64,000 bases of DNA from Clostridia bacterium (GTDB lineage Bacteria; Bacillota; Clostridia; TANB77; CAG-508). The position numbers were made by a program, and so were the translations under genes. Within the stretch, counting starts at the first letter, position 1. Each line of letters begins with the position of its first letter. Under the pieces are notes generated by a model. The model was not told where the DNA came from, searched no databases, and worked only from the letters and a program-made list of their open reading frames with translations. The stretch covers positions 16,091-80,090 of the forward strand of contig JAFUYJ010000001.1 of NCBI GenBank assembly GCA_017470645.1. Direction: 5' to 3'. Positions 1,122 through 55,308 of this stretch are shown piece by piece.

Positions 1122-1405
1122 GTAGCCGCCAACGCTGTTTAATTAATTGATGATTGGTGGTGGTATGGGGATATATATTACTTTAAAAATGTTTCCCAAC
1201 AGCGCACAGAGAGTAATAATTCCTGAGTGTGAGGGACGGATGGATTTTGTATTGTTGATGTATTGAAAACGTTTTAGATCTATTGAGCCTATTGGGGAAT
1301 TATAACTCTCTGTAGCTAGCCGGTCCCCACTTAAGCCACATTTTTAAAGTAATATATATCCCCATACCACCACCAATCATCAATTAATTAAACAGCGTTG
1401 GCTAC
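1122..1405. repeat. Inverted-repeat element A. It has 64-bp perfect arms (1128-1191 and 1339-1402) around a ~150-bp core. The core holds a nested 17-bp stem (cagagagtaataattcc / ggaattataactctctg)
   Basis: Read directly from the sequence. The 5' arm gccaacgctgtttaattaattgatgattggtggtggtatggggatatatattactttaaaaatg is the exact reverse complement of the 3' arm. The element lies between the murD stop (1118-1120) and the antiporter start. Confidence 0.85.
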
Positions 1406-1457
1406 TCTGAAGACGGTAGATGGTTTTGTTAGATGTAAGGAAAGAGAGGATGTAGTT

Positions 1458-2420
1458 GTGGTAGTTTGGATTGTATTAATTGTTTTAGGATTTGTTTTGC
1501 TGATTAAGGGTGCAGATTTTTTAGTTGAGGGGGCAAGTAATATTGCTAAGAAGTTTCATATTCCGGAGATAATTATTGGGTTGACTATTGTGTCTATTGG
1601 TACTTCTATGCCGGAGTTGTTTGTTAGTATTACTTCAGCGATAGATGGGTATGCTGATATGGCTGTTGGGAATATTGTTGGGAGTAATATAGCTAATTTG
1701 TTGTTAATTTTGGGTATGTCGTCAATTATCAGAGCTATTAAGTTTAAGAGGGAGACTAGGTTGATTGAAATTCCAATGTGTTTAGGTGTTTCGCTGCTTT
1801 TTGTTTTACTATGTAATTTGGGACATAATATTACAAGAGTAGATGCTGGAATTTTGATTGTGCTTTTTGTATTGTTTATTGTGTATACAATTATAATGGC
1901 TAAAAAAGGTGAGGATTTTGATAAGGAAGATGACGATGAAATTGTTGTAGATCGAACTAAGTCAAGTAAATCAACTATTAAGGATATTGTGTTTTTGATT
2001 TTAGGAGCGGTATTGCTAAAAATTGGTGGAGATTTAACGGTTGAGAATGCGGTTGAGGTTGCTAAGCATTTTGGGTTAAGTGAGAAATTAATTAGCGTTA
2101 CAATATTAGCTGTTGGGACAAGCTTGCCAGAATTAGTTACGAGTGTTTCTGCAGCTTTTAAAGGTAAAAGTGATATTGCTATCGGTAATATTTTGGGTTC
2201 AAACATCTTTAATATGTTGTTGATAATTGGTGTTTCTGCAATGATTAAGCCTATTGTATATAATATGAGTTATAATTTAGATATGGTATTTTTAATTGGT
2301 GGTACTTTGGTGTTATCATTGTTTCCTATTATTCCACCAAAAAATAAGATGAGTAGAGGAAATGGCTTTGTGTATGTTTTGATTTATGCAGGGTATTTGG
2401 TAAGTTTATTTGTGAAGTAA
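1458..2420 (+). CDS. Ca2+/Na+ antiporter, CaCA family (YrbG-like)
   Basis: It carries the duplicated alpha-repeat motifs GTSMPELFVSITSA and GTSLPELVTSVSAA and is multi-TM. The track ORF starts at TTG 1398, which lies inside the IR arm. I prefer GTG 1458, which follows RBS aaagagagga and gives an N-terminus VVVWIVLIVLGFVLLIKGADF typical of the family. Confidence 0.8.
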   Translation: MVVWIVLIVLGFVLLIKGADFLVEGASNIAKKFHIPEIIIGLTIVSIGTSMPELFVSITSAIDGYADMAVGNIVGSNIANLLLILGMSSIIRAIKFKRETRLIEIPMCLGVSLLFVLLCNLGHNITRVDAGILIVLFVLFIVYTIIMAKKGEDFDKEDDDEIVVDRTKSSKSTIKDIVFLILGAVLLKIGGDLTVENAVEVAKHFGLSEKLISVTILAVGTSLPELVTSVSAAFKGKSDIAIGNILGSNIFNMLLIIGVSAMIKPIVYNMSYNLDMVFLIGGTLVLSLFPIIPPKNKMSRGNGFVYVLIYAGYLVSLFVK

Positions 2421-2475
2421 TGAATTGTATATAATTTTTATAAACAATAAATAGTTATTTGTGAGGAGGAAATTT

Positions 2476-2868
2476 ATGTATAGTGAGGATATTGAGTTAG
2501 CAAAAAATGCTAGATTAAAGGCATATTCGCCTTATAGTAATTATCAAGTTGGAGCAGTACTTAGAACTAAAAGTGGAAAAGCATATATAGGATGTAACAT
2601 TGAAAATCATGGAATACAAGGAATTTGTGCAGAACGAACAGCTTTTGCAAAAGCACTTTCAGAAGGTGAAAGGGAGTTTGAAAGTATAACAGTTGTTGGT
2701 GGAAAAAAAGGTGAAGAAGCTAGAGATAAATGTATGCCATGTGGATATTGTAGACAGTTTATGAGCGAGTTTGTAAATGATAATTTTAAAGTGTATGTTG
2801 TTGATAGAGACAATAATGTTAGTGAGTTTACTATGGGTGATTTATTGCCATATGGTTTTAAGATTTAA
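2476..2868 (+). CDS. cdd: cytidine deaminase
   Basis: Zinc-ligand motifs CAERTAFAKAL and CMPCGYCRQFM are present. ATG 2476 follows RBS gaggagg at 2464-2470. The track ORF carries a 5-aa N-terminal over-extension. Confidence 0.9.
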   Translation: MYSEDIELAKNARLKAYSPYSNYQVGAVLRTKSGKAYIGCNIENHGIQGICAERTAFAKALSEGEREFESITVVGGKKGEEARDKCMPCGYCRQFMSEFVNDNFKVYVVDRDNNVSEFTMGDLLPYGFKI

Positions 2869-2948
2869 AAATGTATTAGGGTCACACTATATATACATGG
2901 ACATTGAAAGAAGCTTTGTTGGAAAAAATTTATAAAATTTAAGAAAAA

Positions 2949-2990
2949 AATTAGGACGAAGAAAATCTATTTTTCTTCGTCCTAATTTAA
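2949..2990. terminator. bidirectional rho-independent terminator between cdd(+) and asnS(-)
   Basis: A perfect 15-bp stem, ttaggacgaagaaaa / ttttcttcgtcctaa, has a 5-nt loop and A/T runs on both sides. Confidence 0.7.
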
Positions 2991-2999
2991 ATGTATTTT

Positions 3000-4388
3000 T
3001 TAAAAATCACAATTTCCTGGTGTTCTAGGGAATGGAATAACATCACGAATATTTTGCATACCTGTAATGTACATTAGCAATCTTTCAAATCCTAGACCAA
3101 ATCCTGAATGAACTGTTGAACCGAATTTACGTAGTTGTAAATACCAATCTAATTCTTCAGTATCTATGCCTAATTCTTTCATACGATTTACTAATTTATC
3201 GTAGTCTTCTTCTCTTTGAGAACCCCCCATAATTTCACCAGCGCCTGGAACTTCTAAGTCAACTGCTGCAACTGTTTTTTCATCTGGGTTTAGTTTCATA
3301 TAAAATGCTTTAATATCTTTTGGCCAGTTCTTTACAAATACAGGACCGTTGAAATATTCTGTAATATATTTTTCATGTTCTTTTGCTAAATCTTCTCCAT
3401 ATTCAGGTTGGAATTCCCATTCTTTATCAGCTTTTTTTAGAATGTCAATTGCTTCTTTGTGATCCAATCTAGTAAAAGATGAGTTACATACTTTTTTTAG
3501 TTTTTCTATTAAACCATTTTCAATAAATTTATCGCAGAATTCTAATTCTTCTGGGCATTTTTCTAAAACAACTTTAACAACGTATTTTAAGAAATCTTCT
3601 TCTATATCCATTAATTGTTCTAAATCACAGAAACAAATTTCTGGTTCTACCATCCAAAATTCGTTTGCATGTGTTTTTGTGTTTGAGTTTTCAGATCTTA
3701 GTGTTGGTCCAAAAGTATATATTTTTCCAAATGCGTGTGCAAATGTTTCACCGTGTAATTGACCTGAACCTGTGATAAATGCTTTCTTACCAAAGATGTC
3801 TTGAGTGAAATCAGTTTGTCCATCTTTTTGTGGTAATGGTTTATCTAAATCTAATGTTGTTAATTTAAACATTTCAGCAGATCCTTCACAGTCTGCACAT
3901 GTGATTATAGGACTGTTTAAATAAACGTATCCATTGTTTTGAAAATATTCATGTATAGCAAAAGCGGCAACACTTCTTATTCTAAAGATTGCATTAAAAG
4001 TATTTGTTCTAGGACGTAAGTGTGCAACTGTTCTTAAATACTCAAAAGTGTGTCTTTTCTTTTGAAGTGGATAGTCTTGTGAGCTTAAATTGTCCACTGT
4101 TACGCTTGTTGCTTGTATTTCAAAAGGTTGTTTTGCATCTGGTGTGATTATTAACTTACCTGTTACTGCTATTGAAGAACCTATTGTTAATTTACAGATT
4201 TCATCGAAGTTAGATAAATTATTATTAAAAACAACTTGTACATTATTGAAAAATGAACCATCATTTAGTTCAATAAATCCAAATGTTTTTGAATCACGTA
4301 CAGTTCTAACCCAACCTTCTATTTTAATTTCTTGATTTTCATAGTTTGTTGTGTTTCTAAATAAATCTTTTATAATTGTTGTTTCCAT
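3000..4388 (-). CDS. asnS: asparagine--tRNA ligase
   Basis: 462 aa. An N-terminal OB-fold anticodon-binding domain is followed by a class II aaRS core with motifs FRIRS, GSGQLHGE and GFGLGFERL. Confidence 0.93.
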   Translation of the reverse strand: METTIIKDLFRNTTNYENQEIKIEGWVRTVRDSKTFGFIELNDGSFFNNVQVVFNNNLSNFDEICKLTIGSSIAVTGKLIITPDAKQPFEIQATSVTVDNLSSQDYPLQKKRHTFEYLRTVAHLRPRTNTFNAIFRIRSVAAFAIHEYFQNNGYVYLNSPIITCADCEGSAEMFKLTTLDLDKPLPQKDGQTDFTQDIFGKKAFITGSGQLHGETFAHAFGKIYTFGPTLRSENSNTKTHANEFWMVEPEICFCDLEQLMDIEEDFLKYVVKVVLEKCPEELEFCDKFIENGLIEKLKKVCNSSFTRLDHKEAIDILKKADKEWEFQPEYGEDLAKEHEKYITEYFNGPVFVKNWPKDIKAFYMKLNPDEKTVAAVDLEVPGAGEIMGGSQREEDYDKLVNRMKELGIDTEELDWYLQLRKFGSTVHSGFGLGFERLLMYITGMQNIRDVIPFPRTPGNCDF

Positions 4389-4642
4389 AAGCTTTGTTAT
4401 GCTAGTTTGATAAATTCGAATATAGATAAATGAAAATTTAAAAAACTAACAATCTCCTTTCTGAAAAATTTTGTCGTAAATTAGCTGTATATCAATCTAA
4501 TTTTCTATTTTTAGATTATACATCGTAATAGGCAAAATTGCAAGTATAAAATTCTTGCTTTACATTGAAAATGTTTATTGATATAATTTTTTTGAAATAA
4601 AAAACGTAAGAAAATAATTAATAATATAAACGAGGAAAAGAT

Positions 4643-5410
4643 ATGGTAAAGTATTCGTCAAAAATAAAAAAAATTGTATCAAGTTTATTTTTTAGAGTGG
4701 TGTTATGTATGTTTTTGCTTGTTTGTGGTGCGATGTTTGTTAGATTCAGTAATAGTATGGTTTCTTTAGCAAAGAGTGATAACGTATCTAAAAATGAAAA
4801 TATAATATCTAGTGATGAGAGTGTGAATTTGGATACAAGCGATTTGATTTACGTTGACTTAAGCAAATCAAATGATACTATTGCTAATGACAGTGTTTAT
4901 CACCAAGTTTATCCTGAAAAATGGCTTGAAGAGTTTAATGAAAAAGTAACTATGTTGCAAGAAATTTTTCCATCAGGTAAATATTGGAATCACATGGGGC
5001 AAAATGCATCTAATCCTGGTGAAACAAATAATATATATTGTGTTACAGATATCCCATGTAATCATAATATTTATGGAGAGTTATATTGCAATGCACATTA
5101 TGGGAAATCTAATGATGTGTATCCTTATTATGCAACATGTAGTCAATGCAGAGGTTTTGCAAGCTTGCTAAGTGATATTATTTTTGGTGAAGATGCACCT
5201 GTTAGATATTTTGAAGATTATGATGAATTACGAATTGGCGATCAAGCGAGAATTGATGGTGATTTTCATAGCGTTTTTATTATTGATAAAACAGATGAAT
5301 ATGTAATTGTTGCAGAGTGTAATGCCGATTTACAAACATGCCAAATTAATTGGGGAAGAAAGATTTTAAGACAAGATTTGAATGGATGGTATATTACAAG
5401 ATGGGATTGA
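4643..5410 (+). CDS. hypothetical secreted/membrane-anchored Cys-rich protein
   Basis: It has an N-terminal hydrophobic segment and 10+ Cys in the mature part (CVTDIPCNHN, CSQCRG, AECNADLQTC). I see no family match I can name with confidence. Spacing of Cys...His...Asp would allow a papain-like fold, but this is a guess. Confidence 0.45.
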   Translation: MVKYSSKIKKIVSSLFFRVVLCMFLLVCGAMFVRFSNSMVSLAKSDNVSKNENIISSDESVNLDTSDLIYVDLSKSNDTIANDSVYHQVYPEKWLEEFNEKVTMLQEIFPSGKYWNHMGQNASNPGETNNIYCVTDIPCNHNIYGELYCNAHYGKSNDVYPYYATCSQCRGFASLLSDIIFGEDAPVRYFEDYDELRIGDQARIDGDFHSVFIIDKTDEYVIVAECNADLQTCQINWGRKILRQDLNGWYITRWD

Positions 5411-5484
5411 CTTTATAAAAATAAAAGAATATAATTAAAATATGAAATATAATTCACATTGTAAATATAAGAGAGGAGTCAAAT

Positions 5485-6381
5485 ATGAAAACTGACAAAA
5501 ACATTTTAATTGCTTTTATTTTAAATTTATCATTTTCTATTTTAGAATTTATAGGCGGTGCTTTTACAAATAGTGTTGCCATTATCTCAGATTCTGTACA
5601 TGATATGGGTGATGCTTTAAGTATTGGAGTATCATATTTTTTAGAAAAGAAAAGTAAGAAAAAGCCTGATGATAAATATACATATGGATATATTAGATAT
5701 TCTGTTTTAGGTAGTACTATAACAACAGTAATACTTTTAGTTGGTTCTATATTAGTTATATATAATTCAATTCTAAGAATTATTAATCCTGTGGAAATAA
5801 ACTATGATGGAATGATAATTTTTGCGGTATTCGGTGTTATTATAAATTTTGCAGCAGCGTATTTTACAAGAGAAGGAGATTCTTTAAATCAAAAATCTGT
5901 TAATTTGCATATGTTAGAGGATGTTCTTGGATGGGTAATTGTATTAATTGGAGCTATTGTGATGAGAATATTTGATATAACTTACATTGATCCAATTCTT
6001 TCTATTTGTGTAGCTATATTTATTTTGATAAATGCATATAAAAACTTTAAAGCTATATTAGATGTATTCCTTGAAAAAACACCTAAAAATATTGATGTTG
6101 CGGAGATTAAAGAACATTTAAGTGAAATTGAGGAAGTAGTAGATGTTCATCATATTCATATTTGGAGTATGGATGGATATTCTAATTTTGCAACGTTGCA
6201 TGTTATTACAAAAGATAAGAGTAAAGAGGTTAAAGATAAGATTAGAGATGAGTTAAAAGAACATGGAATTGGTCATGTTACTATTGAATTAGAGGGTGAA
6301 GGTGAGAAGTGCTGTAGTGAAAATTGTGATGTTGAGTCAAATGTTGGGGGACGTCATCATCATCACCATCATCATCATTAG
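5485..6381 (+). CDS. czcD: cation diffusion facilitator (CDF) family metal efflux transporter, CzcD/ZitB-like, with His8 C-terminus
   Basis: Six TMs are present with the HD/HD metal sites (SDSVHDMGD), a C-terminal cytoplasmic domain, and a natural His-rich tail GGRHHHHHHHH. Confidence 0.85.
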   Translation: MKTDKNILIAFILNLSFSILEFIGGAFTNSVAIISDSVHDMGDALSIGVSYFLEKKSKKKPDDKYTYGYIRYSVLGSTITTVILLVGSILVIYNSILRIINPVEINYDGMIIFAVFGVIINFAAAYFTREGDSLNQKSVNLHMLEDVLGWVIVLIGAIVMRIFDITYIDPILSICVAIFILINAYKNFKAILDVFLEKTPKNIDVAEIKEHLSEIEEVVDVHHIHIWSMDGYSNFATLHVITKDKSKEVKDKIRDELKEHGIGHVTIELEGEGEKCCSENCDVESNVGGRHHHHHHHH

Positions 6382-6409
6382 TATTTTTTTTATGGCTTAG
6401 ATATTTTGC

Positions 6410-6633
6410 AGTAGTTCGCCTCAAAAAAAGTGCGTCAATGCTTATATTGTTTTATTCGTTTCGCCCCAACTACGAACCAAGAGTAAGAAAATATCATGCA
6501 AGATGGGATTGAGTGATATGGGTTTGAGTGTATTTTGCATGATATTTTCTAACTCTTGCTAGCTTGTTGGTCCCCACCTTGACTTCACTTCATAAAACAA
6601 TATAAGCATTGACACACTTTTTTTAGGCTACTC
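6410..6633. repeat. Inverted-repeat element B. Its ~40-bp arms (6417-6455 and 6592-6628, 1-2 mismatches) enclose a core with a nested 22-bp stem (caagagtaagaaaatatcatgc / gcatgatattttctaactcttg)
   Basis: Read directly from the sequence. The core shares a conserved head (CCCAAC..CG.AC.AGAGTAA.AA) and tail (TAGCT.G..GGTCCCCAC.TT.A) with element A. Confidence 0.85.
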
Positions 6634-6673
6634 TATGATAGTGAGGGCTAAATTGATATAGAAAGGATTTTGT

Positions 6674-7645
6674 ATGGAATTACCGGTTGAATTAAGAGGT
6701 TTAATTGAAAAAAGTTTGGAAAGTAGTAATATAAAAGAATTACAAAAAAATTCTGAGAGTATTAGCTTAAAGTATAGAGAAGAAAGTGGAAGAGGAAATA
6801 GGTTGGTTACGGAAGATATTGAGGCTTTAGCATATTCGGCAGTTAGAATGCCTGCTACGTTTGCTGCAGTTTATACTGCTTTAAAAAATACGTTGGAGAT
6901 TTGTGATTTAAAAATAGACTCTATGTTAGATGTTGGAGCTGGAACAGGTGCTGGTACTTGGGCAATTAACGATTTAGTGGATTTTGAAGAAGCAACATGC
7001 CTTGAGCGAGAAGATGCGATGATGAATCTTGGAAAAAGTTTTATGCAAGAATCAGAAATACAGTCTTTAATGAATGTTAAGTGGGAAAAGTTCGATTTAA
7101 TAGGTTCAGAAATTAAACAGAAGGCTGACTTAGTTGTATGTTCTTATGTTTTAAATGAATTAAATGAAAATGATAGAAAAATTGCGTTGGAAAAATTATG
7201 GAACGCAACAAATAAAATTCTTTTGATAATTGAACCAGGAACGCCAGTAGGGTTTAGTGAAATTAAACAACTTCGAAAGATTTTAATGAAACATGGTGGA
7301 AATGTTATAGCTCCATGTCCAAATATAGAAATATGCCAAATGCCAGATGATGACTGGTGTCATTCTACGTGCAGAGTAGCTAGAACTAAAATACACAAGT
7401 TGTTAAAAAATGGTGATGTACCTTATGAAGATGAGAAATTTTCATACATTGCAGTGTGCAAGGAATCAATTGAAAAGAAGGATTTTGTAAGAGTTTTAAG
7501 ACATCCTAAAATTGAAAGTGGAAAAATTACTTTGCAAGTATGTTCAAAAGATGGGATAAGTGAAAGAATTGTTACTAAAAAGGAAAAAGAATTGTTTAAA
7601 ATTGCAAGGAAAGTTAAATGTGGAGAATACATCGAAAATATGTAA
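6674..7645 (+). CDS. Rsm22-family SAM-dependent methyltransferase (COG5459-like)
   Basis: A methyltransferase glycine-rich loop DVGAGTGAGTWA is followed by a C-terminal Cys cluster (CPNIEICQM, CHSTCRV) typical of bacterial Rsm22 homologues. Confidence 0.65.
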   Translation: MELPVELRGLIEKSLESSNIKELQKNSESISLKYREESGRGNRLVTEDIEALAYSAVRMPATFAAVYTALKNTLEICDLKIDSMLDVGAGTGAGTWAINDLVDFEEATCLEREDAMMNLGKSFMQESEIQSLMNVKWEKFDLIGSEIKQKADLVVCSYVLNELNENDRKIALEKLWNATNKILLIIEPGTPVGFSEIKQLRKILMKHGGNVIAPCPNIEICQMPDDDWCHSTCRVARTKIHKLLKNGDVPYEDEKFSYIAVCKESIEKKDFVRVLRHPKIESGKITLQVCSKDGISERIVTKKEKELFKIARKVKCGEYIENM

Positions 7646-7735
7646 AAACAGTAATATCAAAGCTTCTTATCATTTTGCTGACGTCGGCAAAATGATAAGA
7701 ATGCCATAAGGAGCAGAAAATGAATATTATTTTTT
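7641..7735 (+). pseudogene. Remnant duplicate of an internal segment of the downstream dinD-like gene; about 85 bp at roughly 88% identity to 8250-8335
   Basis: atgtaaaaacagtaatatcaaAGcttctTatcattttgcTgacgtcggcaaaaTgataaGaatgcc aligns with the gene segment encoding CKNSNINTSDHFADVGKTIKMP. No start codon is present, stops follow, and it overlaps the Rsm22 stop codon. Confidence 0.6.
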
Positions 7736-8076
7736 AAGATAGACATTCAAAAGCGGATGATAAATATAATCCAAATGAAATGTTTGAGGAAGATAGGGAA
7801 TCTTCAAATTATACGGTAGCGGTATTTGATATAGATGAGAATATATTATATTTTTATGAATTAGATACATAAAATTATAATAAGTAACTACAAAAATTTT
7901 CAACGATGTCGAGAATATTTGCTTTATAATATTATGTAAAAATAATTTATAAAACTATTGAATGCTAGAATTGAATATGATATAATGCAAACAATAGTTT
8001 TTAAATAAATATATGTAGTATATGCTGGAATAATAAATGTAGAGATAACTAAATTTTAGCAAAAGGAAGTGTTCTT

Positions 8077-8928
8077 ATGGAAAATAATTTGGTAATCAAA
8101 ACAGAAAAGATTTTTGAGAAAATAAAACATGTTGATGAAAGTGGTGTGGAATTCTGGTATGCAAGAGAGCTTATGGAAATACTTGAGTATACTAAATGGG
8201 GAAATTTTGTGAAGGTTATAAGTAAAGCAATGGAAGCATGTAAAAACAGTAATATCAATACTTCTGATCATTTTGCCGACGTCGGCAAAACGATAAAAAT
8301 GCCCAAAGGTGCAGAAAAGGTAGTTGATGATTTTAAATTGACAAGATATGCATGTTATTTAATTGCACAAAATGGTGATAGTAGGAAGAAAACTATAGCA
8401 TTGGCTCAAACATATTTTGCAGTACAAACTAGAAAGCAAGAAATAACAAGGCAGGAATATGAGCAATTAAGTGAAGATGAAAAAAGATTATATACAAGGC
8501 AAAATGTAAAAGATAAAAACAAGTTTTTGTTTGATACTGCCAAACTTGCTGGAGTTAAAAACTATGGAAAATTCAATAATTATGGATACAGAGGTTTATA
8601 TAATGGTGAAACTGCAAAAGATATAGCTAAAAGAAAAGGAATATCAGAAAAAGAGGATATTCTTGATTATATGAGTAGTACAGAATTAGCAACTAATCTA
8701 TTTAGAATTACGCAAACAGATGAGGTATTAAAAAACAAAAATATAAATAACGAAAATGATGCATGTAAAACACATCATAATGTTGGACAAGCGGTAAGAC
8801 AAACTATAAAAAGAATAGGTGGTACAATGCCTGAGGATATGCCAACGCCTAGAAAAAGTGCAAAAGAGATTGAAAAAGAAAAAATGAAAAGATTAGTAGA
8901 GAAAAACAATAAGAAGAAAGGAAAGTAA
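8077..8928 (+). CDS. dinD: DNA-damage-inducible protein D-like (Bro-N domain family)
   Basis: WYARELMEILEYTKWGNFVKVI...SDHFADVGKTIKM...LTRYACYLIAQNGDSRKK...AQTYFA matches the E. coli DinD/Bro-N consensus (FW.AREL, DHFvDV.KMv, LTRYACYL.AMNGDPRK, AQ.YF). Confidence 0.8.
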   Translation: MENNLVIKTEKIFEKIKHVDESGVEFWYARELMEILEYTKWGNFVKVISKAMEACKNSNINTSDHFADVGKTIKMPKGAEKVVDDFKLTRYACYLIAQNGDSRKKTIALAQTYFAVQTRKQEITRQEYEQLSEDEKRLYTRQNVKDKNKFLFDTAKLAGVKNYGKFNNYGYRGLYNGETAKDIAKRKGISEKEDILDYMSSTELATNLFRITQTDEVLKNKNINNENDACKTHHNVGQAVRQTIKRIGGTMPEDMPTPRKSAKEIEKEKMKRLVEKNNKKKGK

Positions 8929-8929
8929 T

Positions 8930-9274
8930 ATGGAACATATTCATTCAATTATTATTATAAAAAAAGAAAATGCCTTTTTAAATTATTATGATGAAAGATG
9001 GGGAATGTATTTATTTCCAAATATGAAAGGAAATGATATAGAAGCAATAAAAAATAAGTATAATACACAAAATGTAAAATTACTATTTGATAAAGTACAC
9101 GATAAGTATTCTGTATCACATGATGAAATAAGAACATATCATCATTATTTCTATGAAGTTGATGCTGATATTGACGGAACTTATTTTACATTAGATGAAT
9201 TGTTGGAAGATGAAAAGGTTAAGGAAAATAATGAAGATATTATCGGATTTATAAGAGAGTATTATCAGATGTAG
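8930..9274 (+). CDS. hypothetical protein, translationally coupled to the dinD-like gene
   Basis: ATG 8930 comes 2 nt after the dinD stop. 114 aa, with no recognisable motif. Confidence 0.5.
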   Translation: MEHIHSIIIIKKENAFLNYYDERWGMYLFPNMKGNDIEAIKNKYNTQNVKLLFDKVHDKYSVSHDEIRTYHHYFYEVDADIDGTYFTLDELLEDEKVKENNEDIIGFIREYYQM

Positions 9275-10168: not shown

Positions 10169-12622
10169 ATGCAATATAAGTTTACAAACAGAGCTGAAAA
10201 AGCTATAAAGATTGCTAACACAACTGCAGAAGAACTTGGACACAGCTATATTGGTACAGAACACTTACTATATGGTTTGTCAGAAGAAGGAAACGGTGTT
10301 GCAAGCAAGGTTTTAGAATTGCAAGAGGTTACTCCAGATAAAATATTACAAGAAATAGAAGAATTAATAGGATTTGTAGATATAGATAATGAAAAAGTTG
10401 AAACTTCTGGTTTTACACCTAGAACCAAAAGAGTTATTGAAAATGCTTTTAGAGAAGCAAAAAAAATAGGAAGTGAATTCATAGGTACAGAGCAATTATT
10501 AGTAGGGATAATGCAAGAAGCAGATAGTGTTGCTGTGAGAATTCTTCTTGATTTAAATGTCAGTCCACAAAAAATATATAATGAGATAGCTAAAGTAATT
10601 AACGAAGAAGATTTTAATCAAACAGATTCTTCAGATAATAAAAATATAGGAAGCTATAGTTCTACTCCAACATTAAATCAATGTGGGGCAGATTTAACTA
10701 AACAAGCTAGAGAAGGTAAACTTGATCCTGTGATAGGAAGAAAAGATGAAATAGAAAGAGTTATTCAAATCTTATCAAGAAGAACTAAGAATAATCCTTG
10801 CTTAATTGGAGAACCAGGTGTTGGAAAAACAGCTGTAGTTGAAGGTTTAGCAGAAAAAATAGTTTTAGGTGATGTACCGGAATTATTAAAAAATAAAAGG
10901 GTTGTAACGCTTGATATTACCAGTATGATAGCTGGTGCTAAATATAGAGGAGACTTCGAAGAGAGAATAAAGAAGTCATTAAATGAAGTAAAAAAAGTAT
11001 CGGATGTAATTTTGTTTATTGATGAAATTCATACTATAGTTGGTGCTGGAGCTGCAGAGGGAGCGGTAGATGCAGCAAATATTTTAAAGCCACTACTTGC
11101 AAGAGGAGAAATACAATTAATAGGAGCAACAACCATAACAGAGTATAGAAAATATATTGAAAAAGATAGTGCATTAGAAAGAAGATTTAGTCCAGTTACT
11201 GTTGAAGAACCTAGTATAGAAGATACCATTAAAATATTAGAGGGAATTCGTGACAAATATGAAGCTCATCATAATGTAAAAATTACAGATGAAGCAATTG
11301 TTTCAGCAGTAAACTTATCAGTAAGATATATAACGGATAGATTTTTGCCAGATAAAGCAATAGACTTAGTGGATGAAGCATCATCTAAGCTTAAAATGAA
11401 AACGTATACAAGGCCAGAGAAACTAAAAGAATTGGAAGAAAAAATAAGTCAAATAGACAACGAAAAGGAAGAGGCTATTTTGGTTCAAGATTTTGAAAAA
11501 GCTGCTAATTTAAGGGATGAAGAACAGAAATTACTTGAGAAATTAGAAAAGGACAATAAAAGATGGGAAAATAAATCAAGTAGAAATGTAACTATACTAA
11601 ATGAAGAAGATATTGCTGAAGTAATAGCAAATTGGACTAATATTCCAGTGAAGAAGCTAACTCAGGATGAGAATGAAAAATTAAAAAATCTTGAAGAAGT
11701 ACTTCATAAAAGAGTAGTGGGACAAAATGAAGCAGTAGAAGCGGTTGCAAAAGCAATAAGAAGAGGCAGAGTCGGATTAAAAGATCCAAATAGGCCAATA
11801 GGTTCATTCTTATTTTTAGGTCCAACAGGGGTTGGAAAAACAGAACTTTCAAAAGCATTAGCTGAAGCAATGTTTGGAAATGAAGATGCAATGATCAGAA
11901 TAGATATGTCTGAATATATGGAGCCACACTCAATATCTAAGTTAATAGGCTCACCTCCAGGGTATGTAGGATTTGATGAAGGTGGACAATTAACAGAAAA
12001 AATTAGAAGAAAACCATATTCTGTTATCTTATTTGATGAGGTTGAAAAAGCACATCCAGATGTTATGAATATGTTGTTGCAAATATTAGAGGATGGACGA
12101 TTAACAGATAGTCAAGGAAGAACAGTTAATTTCAAAAATACGGTAATAATAATGACATCAAATATAGGTGCTAGAATAATAACAGATAGAAAACTATTAG
12201 GCTTTGCGGCTGGTTCAGAAGATAGTAAAAAAGAAGAAAACAAACAATATGAATCAACTAAGAAAGACGTAATGGCTGAATTGAAAAAGGAGTTTAAGCC
12301 AGAATTTATAAATCGTATTGATGAAATCATAGTATTCCATAAATTAGTTGAAGAAGATATAATGCAAATTATAGGAATAATGTTAAAACAAGTGGAAGGA
12401 AGATTAAAAGCTAACAACATAGAAGTTGAAATAGACGAAAGTGTGAAAAAATATATATTTGAAAAGGGATTCGATAAAAATTATGGTGCAAGGCCTTTAC
12501 GAAGAGCTATTCAAACTTACGTTGAGGATGAAATTAGTGAAGCTATTTTAGATGGAAAGGTAAAAGAAAGCAAGAAAAGCATTATTGAAATTGATGAAAA
12601 TCATAATGTTGTAGTTAAATAG
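10169..12622 (+). CDS. clpC: ATP-dependent Clp protease ATP-binding subunit ClpC
   Basis: 817 aa. Two N-terminal Clp repeats, two AAA+ modules (GEPGVGKT, GPTGVGKT) and a UVR-like linker. Confidence 0.95.
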   Translation: MQYKFTNRAEKAIKIANTTAEELGHSYIGTEHLLYGLSEEGNGVASKVLELQEVTPDKILQEIEELIGFVDIDNEKVETSGFTPRTKRVIENAFREAKKIGSEFIGTEQLLVGIMQEADSVAVRILLDLNVSPQKIYNEIAKVINEEDFNQTDSSDNKNIGSYSSTPTLNQCGADLTKQAREGKLDPVIGRKDEIERVIQILSRRTKNNPCLIGEPGVGKTAVVEGLAEKIVLGDVPELLKNKRVVTLDITSMIAGAKYRGDFEERIKKSLNEVKKVSDVILFIDEIHTIVGAGAAEGAVDAANILKPLLARGEIQLIGATTITEYRKYIEKDSALERRFSPVTVEEPSIEDTIKILEGIRDKYEAHHNVKITDEAIVSAVNLSVRYITDRFLPDKAIDLVDEASSKLKMKTYTRPEKLKELEEKISQIDNEKEEAILVQDFEKAANLRDEEQKLLEKLEKDNKRWENKSSRNVTILNEEDIAEVIANWTNIPVKKLTQDENEKLKNLEEVLHKRVVGQNEAVEAVAKAIRRGRVGLKDPNRPIGSFLFLGPTGVGKTELSKALAEAMFGNEDAMIRIDMSEYMEPHSISKLIGSPPGYVGFDEGGQLTEKIRRKPYSVILFDEVEKAHPDVMNMLLQILEDGRLTDSQGRTVNFKNTVIIMTSNIGARIITDRKLLGFAAGSEDSKKEENKQYESTKKDVMAELKKEFKPEFINRIDEIIVFHKLVEEDIMQIIGIMLKQVEGRLKANNIEVEIDESVKKYIFEKGFDKNYGARPLRRAIQTYVEDEISEAILDGKVKESKKSIIEIDENHNVVVK

Positions 12623-12709
12623 TTTAAAAACACTTGATTTTTTCAAAGAAATGTAGTATTATATAGAAATATTAATAGTGAATTTAAAAAATTGAAAGGG
12701 GAAATAATA

Positions 12710-14003: not shown

Positions 14004-14091
14004 GCAGATGTGGCGGAACTGGTAGACGCACAGGACTTAAAATCCTGCGGTTGAATAAACCGTGCCGGTTCGATTCCGGCCATCTGCACCA
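14004..14091 (+). tRNA. tRNA-Leu (anticodon UAA), includes encoded CCA
   Basis: GCAGATGTGGCGGAACTGGTAGACGC... with long variable arm. Anticodon stem cagga/tcctg around loop cttaaaa gives TAA. T-arm GGTTCGATTCC. Acceptor gcagatg/catctgc, discriminator A, then CCA. Confidence 0.9.
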
Positions 14092-41269: not shown

Positions 41270-44200
41270 GTGGCAAATTTGAAAAACTACAAAATAATGA
41301 ATACAAAGGGAGTTTTGCTTGATAAATATCAGCTAGAAAACTATTTAGCTAAGCTTGCTTCTGATAATATTTTAAAAAATAAATCAGACAAGAACACATA
41401 TCCAATACCAAGATTAAAAGAAAATTATGAATATATAACAAAAGTATACAATACATTAACAGAACACTTAAAACTTGGAATACCAATTCATCCAGCAGGT
41501 GAGTGGATTTTAGACAATTATTATATTATAGAAAAAACAGTAAAAACAATTTTAAAAGATATGCCATTAAAGAAATATACAAGTTTTATAGGTCTTGAAA
41601 ATGGTACGTATAAAGGTTTTGCTAGAGTATACATGCTAGCTAGTGAAATTGTCGCATATACAGATGCAGTAATTGATAGAAACAATTTAAGCAGTTTGCT
41701 TCAATCATATCAATCAAAGAAAAATTTGAGTATGGAAGAAATTTGGAATATAGGAGTATTTTTACAAATTGCTCTTATCGAGAATATTCGAGGAATCTGT
41801 GAAAAAATCTATGCTTCTCAAATACAAAAATATAAAGTTGAAAATATTATAGAAAGATTAGTTGAAAATAAGGATGAATTAAAATTTAAAAATGTTTCCC
41901 CAAGTAGATCATATTCGTATGGTGAAATGAAGTATCCTTTTATTGAGTATATGTCGTATAGATTAAAACAGTATGGTAGGCAGGCATATGCTTTTTTTAA
42001 TATTTTAGAAGAACAAGTTGAAAAAATGGGATTAAGCGTTTCGGAAGTTATTCAAAAAGAGCATTTTGATATTGCTGTGAAAAAAGTATCAATGGGAAAT
42101 TCAATTACAAGTATTAATACTATAATTAGGGTCAATTTTCTTGAAATATTTGAGCAAATAAATGGTGTTGAAGAAATTTTAAAAAAGGATCCTGCATGTG
42201 TATATAGTAAAATGGATTATAAAACTAGAGCGTATTACAGACAAGAAATTCAGAAAATTGCAAAAAAAACAAAAATATCTGAAATATATGTTGCAAAGAA
42301 ATGTTTAGAATTAGCAAGTAGAGGTAAAGAAACTCATATTGGATATTATTTGATTTCAAAAGGAAAAGAACAACTACTTTCAGAGCTATTAAATAAAAGA
42401 GTTAAATTTATAAAATTAAAAACTAAAAAAAGAATATATGTTTTTGGAATTATATTGTTATCAATATTATTAAGCTTATTATGTGGAACATATGTGTATA
42501 AGAACGGTGCAAATATAATTATTTCTTCATTAATTTTTATTACAGCGCTAATACCAAGTCAAACCATAGTTGTGCAATTAATCCAATATATTTTGAGTAA
42601 AATAATAAAACCTAAGATGCTCCCAAAATTAGATTATAAATTAGGAATTCCAAAAGAAAGTGCAACAATGGTAATTATACCAACAATTGTAAAAACAGCG
42701 GAGAAAGTACATGAATTATTTTCAAAGCTAGAAGTGTATTATATAGCAAATAAGAGTGATAATTTATATTTTACATTATTAGGAGACTGTTCAAGTGAAT
42801 CAAATGAAAAAGAGGATTTCGACAGTGAAATAATAGAAGCAGGAATTAAAGAAATAGGTAGACTAAATGAAAAATATCCGGATAAAGAGTTTAGTAAATT
42901 TAATTTTATTTATAGGAAAAGAGTGTGGAATGAGGCAGAGGAATGTTATTTAGGATGGGAGAGAAAAAGAGGTGCTATTACTCAATTTAATGAGTATTTG
43001 TTAGGAAATATAAAGAACCCATTTTTATATAATAGTTTTGAAGAAAATTTAGGTGAGACTTTTGGGGACACTGACAAAAAGTCTCACCCGGAAATAAAAT
43101 ATGTAATTACGCTAGATAGCGATACAGATTTGACACTAAATTCAGGATTAGAATTAATTGGTGCAATGGCACATATTTTAAATAAACCAATATTAGATCA
43201 AAATAAAAATGTTGTAATTAAGGGGCATGCATTAATGCAACCAAGAGTTGGAATAGGATTGTTAGAAGTAAGACGAAGTTTGTTTACCGAAATTTTTTCA
43301 GGACAAGGTGGTACAGATTCATATGTTAACGCAATCTTTGATGTATATCAAGACAATTTTGATGAAGGAATTTTTACAGGAAAAGGAATTTATGATTTAA
43401 AAGTCTTTTCTAAGGTTTTGAAAAATGAAATTCCTGAAAATACAGTATTAAGCCATGATTTATTGGAAGGATCATATCTAAGATGCGGAATGGTTTCAGA
43501 TGTAATGCTTATGGATGGTTATCCTACTAATTATCTAGCTTTTAAGAAAAGGCTTCATAGGTGGATTAGAGGAGATTATCAAATATTAAAATGGATAAAA
43601 AACAGAAAGATAGATTTGTTATCTAAATATAAAATTGCAGATAATATATTGCGAAGCAAACTAGAAAGTAGTGTATTAGTATTATTAATATTAGTAATTC
43701 TTACTAATGCAGTTTATAAAGTGAAGATGTGGCCAATTATTGTATTTTTACTTGTGGCAGTAACAATTCCATATATTTTAGAGATAGTTAATAAAGTGAT
43801 ATTCAAAAAAGAAGGAGAAACAGGACAAAAGACTTTTGTAAAAAAACAAACCACATTAAAAAACAGCTTAATAAAAGCTTTTTTTACAATAATTACAATT
43901 CCAGATAAGGCATATATGGCTATTAATGCTGAGATTACAAGCTTATACAGAATGCTAGTTAGCAAAAAACATTTATTAGAATGGGTTACAGCTGAAGAAG
44001 CAGAAAAAAAATCAAAGAATGATTTAAAAAATTACTGTTTTAGTATGATTCCAAATATAATAGCAGGTATGATAGGAATAGGATTGGTATTATTAATTGA
44101 TTTACAAGTCGTACAGGAATTAGTGATTTTAGTTATTTCAATACTATGGATAATTGCACCTATAATCATGTGCAATATTAGTAAACCAATTAAAGAAATA

Positions 44201-47200
44201 GATAAGTTAGATTTACTAAATAAAAATGAACAAGATTATGTTCGACACATTGCTGAAAAAACATGGCTTTTCTTTAAGGATTATATTAATGAAAAAACAA
44301 ATTTTTTGCCACCAGATAATTATCAGGAAGACAGAAATCCAAAAGTTGTAATGAGAACATCATCAACAAATATAGGATTAGCAATGCTTTCAATAATTTC
44401 AAGTTACGATTTAGAATTTGAAAACTTGGAAGATACCATAAACTTATTAGAAAAAACTATAAACACAGTTTATGGTTTACAAAAATGGAATGGTCATTTA
44501 TATAACTGGTATAATCTAGATAATTTAGATCCACTAACACCTAGATTTGTTTCATCAGTTGATAGTGGTAATTTTGTGGGATATTTATATGTTGTATATC
44601 AATTTTTGGAAAATGTGATTCAAACTGTAGATAGCCCCTTGACTTTAATAGATAAAATTAATTCAATGAAAATACAAGTAAAAGAATTAATTCAAAATAC
44701 TGATTTTACAAAACTATTTGACTATAAAAATAACTTATTCTCAGTAGGCTTTGATGTTGAAGAAAATAAATTAGTCGATTCATATTATGATTTGATTGCA
44801 TCTGAAGCAAGACAAGCAAGCTTAGTTGCCATAGCAAAAAAAGACATAGATGTAAAGAATTGGTATAACTTAAGTAGAACACTTACTGTATTAAATAAAT
44901 ATAAAGGATTGATTTCATGGTCAGGAACTTCATTTGAATATTTAATGCCAAACATAAATATTCCAAAGTATCCAGGAAGCTTATTAGATGAATCGTGCAA
45001 ATTTATGATAATGAGCCAGAAAGAATACACAAAAAAACTAGGAATTCCATGGGGAATATCGGAGTCAGCTTTTAATTTGAAAGATTTAAATAATAATTAT
45101 CAATACAAAGCTTTTGGAATCCCATGGCTTGGATTAAAAAGAGGTTTGGCAGATGAAATGGTTGTGTCATCCTATGGTTCAATTTTAGCAATAACAGAAG
45201 AACCAAAAGCTGTTTTGGAAAACATAAAGAAACTAGAAAAACAGGGCATGTACGATAAGTATGGATTCTATGAAGCAATAGATTATACTCCAAATAGGGT
45301 AGGTAAAAACAATAAATATGAAAATGTTAAAACATATATGGCACACCATCAGGCATTAATTTTACTATCAATTAATAATCTGTTTAACAAGAATATCCTA
45401 CAAAAAAGATTCATGAAAAATCCTGAAATGCAAGCAGTTAATATTTTATTAGAGGAAAGAATGCCTGAAAATATAGTTATAACAAAAGAACAGAAGGAAA
45501 AAGTAGAAAAGATAAAATACAATAATTATGACTATTATTCAGAAAAAACATTTACTAAAATAAATAATGATATAGATAGATATAATTTAATTGCAAATAA
45601 GGATTATACCATAATAATGGATGACAAAGGGAATGGCTTTAGCAAATATAAAGATATATTAATAAATAGATATAAACCAACATCCGATTTAGAGCAAGGA
45701 ATATACTTCTATGTAAAGAATATTAAAAATAAAAAAATTTGGACTAGTGGATACAATCATGGGTATGAAGAGCCTGATAAATACACTGTAACATTTGCAC
45801 CGGATAAAACTAAAATAGTAAGAATTGATGGGAACATAGAAACTAAAACAATAGTAACTGTAAGTCCAAATGATTCTGTAGAAATAAGAAGATTGGAAAT
45901 TAAGAATTTAGGAAACACTGATGAAACTTTAGAAATAAGCTCTTTTATAGAGCCAGTTCTATCAAAGAAAGAGCAGGATTACGCTCATCCAGCATTCAAC
46001 AATTTATTCTTAAGTTACGAGTATATTGCAGATACAAATACTATTTTGGTAAAGAGAAAAAAACGTTCTGAAAATGAGCAAGAAATGTATATGGCCGTGA
46101 ATCTATATTCAGAAGAAAGTTCAATTGGAGAAGTTGAATATGAACTTAGTAAAGAAAGATTTATAGGAAGAAATAATTTTGATATTCCAAAGCTTGTAGA
46201 AAATTCAAAACCATTTAGCAAGAAAGTTGAATTAACAACAGATCCTATTATTGCAATGAGAAAAACTATAAATATTAAAGCAAAGGAAAAGATAATATTT
46301 GATTTGATTATTTGTGTTTCAAAAGATAAAGAATATGTGTTAAATAAAATTAAAAAATATATGAATATTGATAATAACAAAAGAACATTTGAACTTTCAA
46401 AAGCAAGAGTTGAAGCAGAAAATAGATATTTAGAAATTACTGGAAAAGATATTGCTATGTATCAAAGATTGTTAAATTATATTATTGGAAATAATTTAAA
46501 TAGTAGTGGAAATGTATATTTGGAAGATATCTATCCAATAACAGAATTATGGAAATTTGGTATTTCTGGTGATTTTCCAATTGTTTTTGCTAAAATAAAA
46601 AATGTAAGTGATATTGATGTTATCTCAGAATTAGTCAAAGCGTACGAATATTTTAAAACCAAAAATCTAGAATTCGATTTAGTAATATTAAATGAAGAAA
46701 AGGAAAAATATGATAGCTATGTTAAGGATGCGATTCTTGATGCGATTTTAAACAGAAATTTAGCGTATATGTTAAATACCAAAGGTGGAATATACGTGCT
46801 AAATAACATCAAGGAGCAAGATGTTGATTTAATTTCTGTATATTCAAAATTAGTTATTGATGCAAAAAACGGAAACCTAAATTTACAGCTTAATGAGCTA
46901 GATGAGAATATTATTAAAATAAACAAGAATGATATGATAGAAAAACAAGAATTAACACAAGAGGAAAGAAAAGATAATTTATTGCTAAATAATAATCTAC
47001 AATATTATAATGATTTTGGCGGATTTTCACAGGATGGGAAGGAATACTTGATACGAGTAAATAAAAATGAAAATGTACCAATGCCATGGAGTCATATTTT
47101 AACAAATAAAAACTTTGGAACAGTCGTTACTGAAGGAATGGCTGGATATACATGGTATAAGAACAGCAGATTAAATAGAATTACTTCGTGGTCAAATAAT

Positions 47201-54700: not shown

Positions 54701-55136
54701 TAAGAAGAGTTTGTCTGAGGAGGAAATTGAGGAGAAGATTAGGAAACAGTTTAAGATGCAAGGGCTTATTTTGGCTGATGTGGATGTTGTTAAGATGATG
54801 GATACTAATTTGGAGACGGGTGCTTCTAATGTTGTTCCGGCGTATGTTGGGAAAGATGGAACTTTGAGTAGTACACGTTCAAGTTCGGTTAGTAGAAAGC
54901 AATTTGAGTATTTGCAGAAGTATACTAATAGGATTATTAAGCAGATTTCTTTGGAGATTTTGAGTGGAAATATTGATATTAATCCGTATTATAATACTAA
55001 GAATAAGAAGACGCCTTGTGATTTTTGTGCGTATAAGTCGGTTTGTAATTTTAATGGGGCGGATTGTACGAATGGGTATAATTATATTGCTAATGCGGAG
55101 AAGGAGGCTGTGTTGGAGATGATGCAGGAGGAGTGA
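51777..55136 (+). CDS. addB: helicase-exonuclease AddAB, subunit AddB (RexB)
   Basis: N-terminal Walker A GKSGSGKSE. C-terminal RecB-type nuclease with an Fe-S Cys cluster (CHFAYYL...CDFCAYKSVC). 1119 aa. Confidence 0.9.
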   Translation: MSIRLIYGKSGSGKSEFIFNEIKELINCGKKIYIITPEQFSFTAEKKLLETLGNSAVLNAEVLTFNRMAYRVAAEVGGTAKINISNSGKAMLIYNILCGKKSKLKFLGKSDENIELIIDQITEFKKHGVMVDDLNKTMEETTDNYLKLKIQDILQVYSEFENKIENRYIDENDNLTNLANQLIDVNIFDNTLIYIDEFVGFTKQEYEIIKQLAKVASQVNITICSDSIEDSFSPESDVFFSNKLTISRLFEIVKSEEIPLDDPVCLDTIYRFKNKELEHLERNLYAIPYKKYEEQPENIKLFLANNQYSEIENVAINIVKLVRNENYRYKDIAVITKGLDVYSNLVKVVFNKYQIPVFIDEKKDLSQNIIVKYILSILEIFARNWSYESVLNYVKTGFLDISKQEIFMLENYCQKWGIKNNKWYKSEWNFKDEDDTNREQIERIREMRRMIVNPLLEFKDSLSGANNVKNITMNLYDFLIKNEIDKKFENKIEELKMAGQTEFATQYETSWKIIMNVLDEIVLVFGDEKVSFDKYMQILKTGLASSDLGKIPGTQDQVIIGDIDRSRSHKVKAIFIIGLNDGMFPSVHKNEGFFNDNDRQYLKERGMELARNTIESLYEDNFNIYKAFTTAEEKLFLSYSSSNSEGKTLRGSILISKMKKIFPKLEEDSDIIERTSEILIENTTFDELLNKLGEYRDTGEISDEWVEVYNYYKNNKVWKYKLEKAMEALLYNNKPEKINQKNISKMYGDTLRTSVSRLEQYQACHFAYYLKYGLKLSEKDNFKINPVDTGTFMHDVIDTFFNSIKERSYDVKDLSDEQIRELVEEIIDEKLGLNKNYIFTSSPKYKALSMRLKKVIFRSMKYIVDSLKYSKFDVLGNEVEFKEGKEYPPITMKLDNGQNVEITGKIDRIDIAKLDGNNYVRIIDYKSSAKNIDLNQVYAGLQLQLITYLDAVCNAEDLMPAGVLYFNLIDPVVKSKKSLSEEEIEEKIRKQFKMQGLILADVDVVKMMDTNLETGASNVVPAYVGKDGTLSSTRSSSVSRKQFEYLQKYTNRIIKQISLEILSGNIDINPYYNTKNKKTPCDFCAYKSVCNFNGADCTNGYNYIANAEKEAVLEMMQEE

Positions 55137-55156
55137 TTTTTTTAGTGTGTTGCCGA

Positions 55157-55308
55157 GAGAAAAGAATTAATATTTTATAAAAAAGTAATCCCTCCAAACG
55201 CGGTGGTGTTTGAGATTGTTCGGGGTGCGTGGTACGATAACTGGTTGGGTTAGATGTTTTTGGGCTCAGGTCGGAATTAATTTTTTATAAAATATTAATT
55301 CTTTTCTC
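55157..55308. repeat. Inverted-repeat element C: perfect 28-bp arms (55157-55184 and 55281-55308) enclose a 96-bp relatively GC-rich core
   Basis: gagaaaagaattaatattttataaaaaa and its exact reverse complement. It lies 21 bp after the addB stop. Confidence 0.8.

Follow-up and report, generated by a model that had tools for sequence, protein, structure and literature searches.

The 64-kb window analysed here (the whole stretch of contig JAFUYJ010000001.1 of a Clostridia bacterium, whose numbering is used throughout) carries two long hairpins, element A (1122-1408) and element B (6404-6634), which have common conserved tip blocks and are two members (subtypes A and B) of a previously undescribed, clade-restricted palindromic repeat family. 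The best reading, held with moderate confidence, is that of a non-autonomous palindromic repeat element, a foldback MITE (a miniature transposable element with inverted repeats) or a giant element like the REPINs (hairpin-forming doublets of repetitive extragenic palindromes, REPs), in which the arms are maintained at the DNA level and the tip is a strand-specific recognition module. The parts of both elements are as follows.

1122-1127, + strand: left foot of A, GTAGCC (tetranucleotide GT[AG]G plus CC); the same foot occurs in the orthologs L033, L046 and L048
1128-1192, + strand: left arm of A, 65 nt, with a locus-specific distal part and a semi-conserved proximal part, ATATATATTACTTTAAAAATG; 100% complementary, proximal part covarying
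1195-1223, + strand: 5' conserved block of A, CCCAACAGCGCAC, and 5' strand of the inner stem, AGAGAGTAATAATTCC; near-invariant in 32 type-A copies
1224-1295, + strand: apical loop of A, G/T-rich, ~70 nt, of constant length; homogenised within genomes and without consensus structure
1296-1330, + strand: 3' strand of the inner stem of A, GGAATTATAACTCTCT (fixed A.A mismatch), and 3' conserved block, GTAGCTAGCCGGTCCCCAC
1338-1402, + strand: right arm of A, complementary to the left arm
1400-1439, + strand: right foot of A, GGCTACTCT, then a degenerate outer repeat (GAAGACGGTAG..GTTAGATGTAAG); full versions in L045, L026, L037 and L020
6404-6422, + strand: left foot of B, TTTTGCAGTAGTTCGCCTC
6423-6455, + strand: left arm of B, complementary to 6592-6624
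6465-6577, + strand: apical module of B, 113 nt, comprising CCCAACTACGAAC, the inner stem, a 27-nt loop with GGGTTT, and CTAGCTTGTTGGTCCCCAC
6592-6634, + strand: right arm of B and right foot GGCTACTCT (6626-6634)

Handles of the form L0xx denote collected relative loci, i.e. fragments of metagenome-assembled genomes (MAGs) or of metagenomes. The two long inverted-repeat elements described in an initial annotation of this DNA are real and the coordinates of their arms were confirmed, those of A (1128-1192 / 1338-1402) being 65 nt long instead of the 64 given there, 100% complementary and 145 nt apart. The left foot of A starts 2 nt past the stop codon of a Mur-ligase gene (8-1120), its inner stem (1206-1223 / 1296-1313, 18 nt) contains a single A.A mismatch, and folded as DNA the element reaches -85 kcal/mol (z = -14 versus shuffles). 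The arms of B (6423-6455 / 6592-6624, 33 nt) are 97% complementary and continue outward with bulges to AGTAG..CC at 6410 and to GGCTACTCT at 6626 (end 6634), while its inner stem (6466-6504 / 6532-6570, 39 nt) is 82% complementary and carries, in the segment 6478-6504 / 6532-6558, an A.A mismatch like that of A. The shared head, nested stems and shared tail noted earlier are all present, on the + strand and in the same order in A and B: CCCAAC (1195; 6465), AGAGTAAnAA (1210; 6480) and TAACTCTnnnTAGCTnGnnGGTCCCCAC (1303; 6550). An 18-mer tail pattern occurs twice in the window versus 0.12 times expected, the apical module of B scores 69.5 bits under a covariance model built from type A, and a 9-nt motif missing from the earlier list, GGCTACTCT, closes both A (1400) and B (6626).

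The wider family was collected by a scan of 185,579 species, with one representative genome per species and the query ACTCTNNNTAGCTNGNNGGTCCCCAC, which gave 32 genome loci in 7 MAG species, almost all of them uncultured Clostridia. The rabbit MAG Lapin-022 bin89 provides 18 loci, and the others come from Lapin-001 bin11, Lapin-027, the sheep-rumen MAG RGIG6613, a MAG from the Hadza gut and two further MAGs, one labelled 'Lachnospiraceae' and the other 'Treponema'. When metagenomes were scanned independently with the 5' block, 25 loci were recovered, of which 23 also have the 3' block, the other two being high-GC chance matches; MAGs and metagenomes together provide 49 distinct copies, which are phylogenetically related, so that counts are not independent. 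The window's own genome reappears in metagenome contigs, several of which begin or end at elements. In public short-read assemblies contigs often start or end inside elements (L001-L005, L014, L019, L020, L036, L037, L040, L044, L057, L065), and because repeats fragment such assemblies the copy numbers are underestimated. Relatives were found via the core, which is conserved, and the collection therefore under-represents young identical copies, scaffolds that are empty and relatives that have diverged.

The Treponema MAG (Treponema sp. UBA6988, L043) has the same tRNA-adjacent island as the Hadza Clostridia MAG, at ~94% identity, and is probably explained by mis-binning or horizontal transfer. 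In this group of loci (L013, at 6199-8000; also L043, L059, L060, L065) a type-B copy has a tRNA gene on one side and, on the other, a small ORF plus a 562-aa large serine recombinase, a stretch that is probably the end of an integrated island.

The initial annotation could place the core in no known RNA family, and this was upheld. Rfam 15 returned one tRNA and no match at A or B for the whole window at gathering thresholds, permissive scans of A, B and a third hairpin gave only sub-threshold matches to generic hairpins (miRNA precursors; VR-RNA, 21 bits versus 100), and a scan of 18 related loci gave no match at the elements. BLAST of both cores against plasmids and phages and pattern scans of viral contigs gave no matches or chance matches only, and a literature search with sequence strings returned only primers and unrelated matches.

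The unit is 230-340 bp long, dispersed, intergenic and multi-copy, with no conserved ORF. Its left foot reads TTTTGCA-GT[AG]G-NCC-GYC and its right foot, the more constant of the two, GRC-TAC-TCTG: on the right CTAC (GTAG on the other strand) is present in most copies (~85%, by eye), and the left foot is GTAG in 13 and GTGG in 4 of ~43 copies, with a stem base of GCC/GGC or GTC/GAC. Some copies, not all, have runs of A and T at the stem base. The arms, 53-65 nt and near-perfect, consist of a locus-specific distal part of 30-35 nt and a semi-conserved, covarying proximal part (ATATATATTGTTTTGAAAATG...), above which the tip junction is asymmetric, with invariant C-rich strands (5' CCCAAC-WRCG-N-AC, 3' TARCTWGYYGGTCCCCACYT). 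In the inner stem, AGAGTAAKAA... / ...TTMTAACTCT, the A.A mismatch is retained in all A, B and C copies, and a U.C/C.U mismatch pair occurs in 6 of 9 aligned B/C copies (most type-B copies). The core measures 135-137 nt in subtype A (33 copies), 112-113 nt in B and ~150 nt in C, and alignment of 32 type-A copies revealed no conserved structure in the 70-nt loop. A small ORF in the core was rejected as a candidate, as the 13-codon minus-strand ORF is confined to type A, with no conserved counterpart in B.

A subset of copies also carries outer terminal repeats (GGTTACTGTTTAACAC/GTGTTAAACAGTAACC) of the form GTTACTGTTTAAC(AC) ... (GT)GTTAAACAGTAAC, 13-16 bp long and ~70-95 nt from the core, at both ends in L045 and L026 and at one end in L031, L037 and L041; L057 and a copy with a different tip, Y, in L039 have one as well. 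Hairpins seem to nest at or near hairpin tips. In L030 (217-424, minus strand) a type-A copy has its loop replaced by a second near-perfect hairpin (GTCAATGGGGACGGAGATTTTTGACAC...), and what looks like an arm end of another scaffold comes after a type-A right end in L019, L020 and L040.

Complementarity of the stems is kept while their sequence changes. In 32 type-A copies 99.5% of cells are paired and two-sided changes occur in 19 of 53 pairs; none of 500 shuffles reaches the observed values, and slid controls pair at 37-52%. The suspicion of a recurrent family, with conserved unpaired blocks and massive two-sided stem changes, is borne out. The long arms have 0-2 mismatches over 51-66 nt in most copies and none in 12 of 43, their pairs comprising 2432 Watson-Crick, 36 G.T, 23 A.C and 60 other mismatches with no clear wobble bias, and G.U predominates among the one-sided changes of the proximal stem (15 versus 2 A.C). 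Selection on an RNA fold cannot hold all positions paired, because a 60-bp helix loses almost nothing by a single mismatch, and a DNA-level symmetrising process accounts better for the perfect arms. Template switching in quasipalindromes is an established mutational mechanism that copies one arm onto the other (PMC7202029). L048 and L056, in which a ~12-nt block of the left arm mismatches the right arm, appear to catch such symmetrisation unfinished; their close relative L066 is symmetric. The tip retains its asymmetries while the arms symmetrise, which argues that its sequence is under selection. The compensatory changes had been put forward as evidence for RNA, a value they lose given that the arms are almost purely Watson-Crick and that one copy, described below, is intact though antisense to its operon. 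Between the structured RNA and the MITE-like element that the initial annotation had proposed, the second fits better, in view of filled and empty sites and of identical-arm copies in different flanks.

The same compensated divergence is seen in a third long hairpin of the window, which directly follows an addB-like gene.

55153-55312, no strand: third long hairpin, with a distantly similar tip (CCCTCCAAACGCGG...GGGCTCAGGTCGGAATTAA); arms 55157-55192 / 55273-55308, 36 nt, 94% complementary

The arms of its ortholog in L047 are different but likewise pair perfectly, and they enclose the Y tip (TCCGTTCGTTTGCTGGCG...GCGCACTCCACYTGCG), which is unrelated to the A/B tip yet is set in an A/B-type scaffold in L025 (7620-7900) and L039 (minus strand, ~4380-4560).

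The strand bearing CCCAAC is the strand with more G than C in ~47 of 49 copies, and at all loci that permit a judgement it is the G-rich sequence of the leading strand. The window (30% G+C; A 24823, T 19985, G 11988, C 7204) has ~85% of its ORFs on the + strand, and this strong strand asymmetry places it within one replichore with + as the leading strand; GC skew amounts to +0.32 in + strand genes and -0.09 in - strand genes, a difference indicating that it has a replication as well as a coding component. The G-rich CCCAAC strand has the sequence of the lagging-strand template. Relative to genes, 27 copies lie in sense between co-directional genes, 6 between divergent and 1 between convergent genes, and 1 between two genes of the opposite strand. 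The copy in L063, between korA-like and korB-like genes, is antisense to both and intact; the skew of the two genes is weak, as is usual for genes on the lagging strand, and the copy points the same way as the nine leading-strand genes of the locus, so that at this single locus polarity tracks the replication strand and sense transcription is not required. Skew and the orientation of genes, in loci 8-14 kb long, served to infer replication direction. Perfect inverted repeats longer than 50 bp should permit occasional inversion of the core, and its uniform orientation therefore implies that strandedness matters. It also makes very improbable an inverton, in which recombination at the inverted repeats would invert the ~140-bp core and so turn a promoter on or off: the geometry (inverted repeats around 110-150 bp, upstream of genes) does resemble that of gut invertons, but all independent assemblies of the same locus have one core orientation, no promoter-like site is present, the arms differ among copies and so provide no common recombinase site, and no recombinase gene is nearby except in one mobile island.

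Gain or loss of copies is shown by loci at which relatives sharing ~80% nucleotide identity differ in occupancy. Two empty sites lie in the window.

12615-12625, no strand: empty site between the stop codon of a Clp-ATPase gene and the efp promoter, filled with a type-A copy in L054 and L016
50753-50809, no strand: empty site at which L047 has a small GIY-YIG ORF and a type-B copy

The ORF of L047 (6114-6320; 69+ aa, GIY-YIG-like N-terminus by eye) is on the strand opposite to the element, and no homologs of it were found beside other copies. The site of B in L046 contains no B core, merely a short, imperfect hairpin whose feet are the same. In Lapin-001, four contigs (L019, L020, L040, L037:1-90) carry an identical 50-nt right arm in different flanks, adjoining an rnpB-like RNA, priA and other genes, and each of the four breaks off within the element, which means that identical copies of young age exist and are under-assembled. 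At least 4 loci of this MAG have received a complete unit with its arms by recent copying. Other copies have persisted. The A site, between the Mur ligase and a Na/Ca exchanger, is filled in 8 assemblies (window, L033, L039, L046, L048, L051, L056, L066), and its arms are still recognisably homologous across several species. Paralogs of the same genome have loops 85-98% and arms 37-66% identical, and the loop of L033/L046 is nearer to the paralog L017 (0.86-0.89) than to the ortholog L048 (0.69), whereas the arms show the reverse, a pattern of sequence identities that indicates that the tips evolve in concert within a genome. No empty scaffolds precisely lacking the tip were present in the collected loci, a sample biased towards filled sites.

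No clean target-site duplication is seen at L045, at L026 or at the site filled in L054 and empty in the window, and young copies are cut by contig ends. This bears on the view of the family as a classical cut-and-paste MITE, mobilised as double-stranded DNA by a DDE insertion sequence (IS) sharing the outer repeats and oriented by selection after insertion. The outer terminal inverted repeats of a subset of copies, the small, ORF-less and multi-copy nature of the elements, their insertion polymorphism and the two different internal modules in one scaffold, as in MITE families with common ends, agree with such an origin. It is nonetheless unlikely: no duplication is visible where both ends are readable (L045, L026), neither the window nor ~400 kb of loci yielded a parent IS, near-absolute strand polarity is unexpected from a symmetric double-strand mechanism, and the strongest conservation is central, not terminal. 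Neither a gene-bearing copy nor an IS bounded by the outer repeats was found; a pair of matches in L040 was rejected as a candidate, since they fall in def and in another coding ORF.

Neighbouring genes provide nothing that recurs. Copies adjoin groES/groEL, kor genes, T-box leaders, an rnpB-like RNA, priA, mur genes and others, and the window itself contains housekeeping genes only. All-against-all BLAST of 768 ORFs gave no recurrent neighbour proteins, the serine-recombinase island of the L013 group and the GIY-YIG ORF of L047 being single cases. Many copies begin a few bases past a stop codon or just after an intrinsic terminator, and several are operon-internal, such as that between groES and groEL in L052. 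The initial annotation had linked both elements to cation transporters, and a cis-regulatory RNA (riboswitch or attenuator) sensing divalent cations and controlling the transporter genes beside it would suit A, which precedes the Na/Ca-exchanger gene, and B, which follows a cation-efflux gene. The link is a coincidence, as other copies flank unrelated genes; the regulatory RNA is regarded as refuted thereby and scarcely deserves credence, B being downstream of its transporter gene, L046 keeping the transporter and Rsm22 genes without the B core, and no expression platform being found at A or B.

The family may be accounted for as follows. The element would be moved by an enzyme encoded elsewhere, most likely acting on a folded single strand at the replication fork, as is suggested by a polarity that follows the replication strand and not transcription; the GT[AG]G...CTAC feet make an HUH/Y1 enzyme (RAYT or IS200-type) the best guess. 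After insertion the arms would drift almost neutrally, and template switching within the element or arm-to-arm conversion (quasipalindrome correction) would transfer changes from one arm to the other and keep them complementary. Recombination between copies, anchored in the invariant blocks, would homogenise the tip within a genome. CCCAAC, GGTCCCCAC and the inner-stem mismatches persist despite symmetrising pressure, which suggests that they form a selected recognition module, and an operon-internal copy would be co-transcribed as a long hairpin by side effect. GGCTACTCT and TAGCCGGT may resemble the pT181 nick region, and the outer repeat the ends of the IS6 family, likenesses that carry no weight in this account.

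Several points weigh against this account. The 64-kb window and the ~400 kb of flanking loci yielded neither a transposase or integrase nor a Y1/HUH-like ORF, and no autonomous element or parent insertion sequence sharing the ends was found there. Conservation is concentrated in the centre and not at the ends, which is atypical for both MITEs and REPINs. Those copies that can be read over their whole length are old and diverged; those with identical arms are cut by contig ends and their left flanks are unseen, and target-site duplications can be neither demonstrated nor excluded from the available flanks. Replication and transcription polarity are separated by one locus only (L063). Tip conservation and persistence at orthologous sites could reflect a host function and not selfish maintenance, and the G.U-biased changes of the proximal stem would also fit selection on + strand RNA, although a G/T mutation bias of the + strand could itself yield the excess.

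These last points lead to a serious, if rather unlikely, rival, namely that the elements are structured RNA genes or processing modules used by the host. The long stem would be an RNase III stalk that releases from the tip a small RNA with the C-rich single-stranded motifs CCCAAC and UCCCCAC as seeds or protein-binding sites, or the element would act in cis as an mRNA stabiliser or operon-decoupling site. Stalks of this kind have a precedent in rRNA precursors. Besides the G.U excess and the 27 copies in sense between co-directional genes, downstream genes are co-oriented in 37 of 41 cases; A and B of the window and the copy of L052 leave no room for a promoter of their own and must therefore be co-transcribed; the tip blocks are invariant across species while loops drift; the A site is conserved in several species; and the covariance model gives 210-236 bits in sense versus 50-74 in antisense. 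The Watson-Crick perfection of the arms nevertheless exceeds what RNA selection would maintain, and their mismatches are not enriched in wobble pairs. The antisense copy of L063 is intact, an intrinsic terminator stands immediately before many copies, conserved structure is lacking in the 70-nt loop and Rfam gave no relative. Close relatives differ in whether a site is occupied, and new loci have whole copies whose arms are identical.

No promoter or terminator signal favours an RNA at A and B either: a scan of 1000-1520 and 6300-6720 returned 0 intrinsic terminators, a class (short G+C-rich hairpin plus T run) rejected on this ground, and no consensus promoter. By eye only, a candidate promoter reads TT[GA]ACT-N16-TATAA[GA] after CCCCAC in type B, with a weaker TTAAGC-N16-TATATA in type A.

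A bolder variant of the non-autonomous repeat, entertained tentatively, would make the family a new replication-polar single-strand hairpin element, composed of a self-correcting scaffold and an exchangeable apical cassette (A/B/C or Y) that is read on the lagging-strand template by a dedicated enzyme, a relative of HUH/Y1 or a new one. What actually moves or homes may then be the cassette, which would overwrite the tips on other scaffolds, or the cassette may be a strand-specific priming or processing signal used by the host.

Comparison with known systems places the logic of the element, best read as a non-autonomous palindromic repeat, close to that of MITEs and even closer to that of REP/REPINs, and shows that it departs from both in its size, its self-correcting locus-specific arms, its exchanged, invariant and asymmetric tip and its strict replication polarity. 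With the REP/REPIN-RAYT system (HUH Y1, TnpA-REP) it has in common intergenic, non-coding, multi-copy hairpins with no gene inside and long vertical persistence, and also GT[AG]G within 0-2 nt of the foot of a stem with a G+C-rich base, with the complementary CTAC at the other foot, in a hairpin-bulge-hairpin layout; REPs with GT[AG]G 'double feet' have been described (PMC6006769), and the likeness of feet, stem base and layout is also drawn from PMC3333891. The elements differ in being 230-340 bp long versus 21-65 nt for a REP and ~100 nt for a REPIN, in having an asymmetric tip of 112-150 nt as their most conserved part, where REPINs conserve the flanks, in arms that differ strongly among copies, in numbering tens per genome and not hundreds, and in their uncultured Clostridia hosts; a Y1/HUH motif search of the ORFs of the collected loci found no RAYT gene beside any copy.

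Bacterial MITEs such as the Correia elements of Neisseria, ERIC/IRU, RUP and bcr1 (PMC10969869, PMC2229807) are likewise short, non-autonomous and intergenic, with terminal inverted repeats; they are co-transcribed into long hairpins, have filled and empty sites, and often lack an identified cognate transposase. The present elements differ from them by having no visible target-site duplication and a near-absolute strand polarity, by arms that stay complementary while diverging to near-random identity, and by central blocks invariant across species in a tip that is exchanged or homogenised among copies. Members of the IS200/IS605 family are processed on the lagging-strand template, for which polarity is established (PMC5027513). 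With them and with their gene-less derivatives, the PATE elements, the family shares orientation by replication strand, imperfect hairpins with fixed mismatches, no target duplication as far as flanks can be read, and similar short motifs beside the left and right tip junctions (CCCAAC, CCCCAC). Those elements, however, have two separate subterminal hairpins and no terminal inverted repeats, as opposed to one nested hairpin here, and they insert 3' of a fixed tetra- or pentanucleotide; neither a conserved target tetranucleotide at the left flank of the elements nor a TnpA/TnpB gene was found.

The tip layout also resembles that of the integron attC site, a recombination site made of a folded single strand, in which a short basal box (CCAAC/GYYGG) is followed by a spacer without pairing, then by a second stem in which one base is always left unpaired, and finally by a terminal part that varies. 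In attC sites too, structure is conserved and sequence variable, and their use is strand-specific and sensitive to replication orientation (PMC5371416). The assignment was rejected: of the attC boxes R'' (RYYYAAC) and R' (GTTRRRY), YYYAAC is present, but R' reads GCCGGTC, GTCGGTC or GTTGGTC (GTT not conserved), and the elements differ from attC in being single and dispersed instead of forming cassette arrays and in lying within extra arms of 53-65 bp, with no integrase in the window.

The family adds an undescribed repeat to a poorly known group of gut and rumen Clostridia, one that breaks short-read assemblies. It also offers a clean natural case of long inverted repeats that diverge almost freely yet stay complementary, and a warning that 'compensatory changes' in very long stems are not by themselves evidence of a structured RNA. 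An invariant asymmetric tip, locus-specific arms and strict replication polarity form an unusual trio for bacterial repeats of the MITE or REP type, which points to a mechanism of single-strand recognition whose enzyme could be sought; interest in the family would widen should its tip turn out to be a processed RNA or a cassette that can be exchanged.

Some further features of the window may be recorded. In the stretch 51777-56257 the addB-like gene that precedes the third hairpin (ADDB_N plus PD-(D/E)XK) is followed, after the hairpin, by a Cu-oxidase_4 gene and not by addA, the usual operon partner of addB. The sole Rfam match of the window, at 14004-14088, is a tRNA of 85 nt whose variable arm is long. 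A gap of 431 nt (7646-8076) separates the Rsm22-family gene from what lies downstream of it, where a Bro-N domain protein and a 114-aa ORF without Pfam match occupy 8077-9274; the Bro-N domain is often phage-associated. A very large glucoamylase/GH94-type gene (41270-49422) appears to be split into three overlapping ORFs (41270-47386, 47313-48716, 48652-49422) across which the Pfam domains continue, the result of two frameshifts that mark either a pseudogene or sequence errors.

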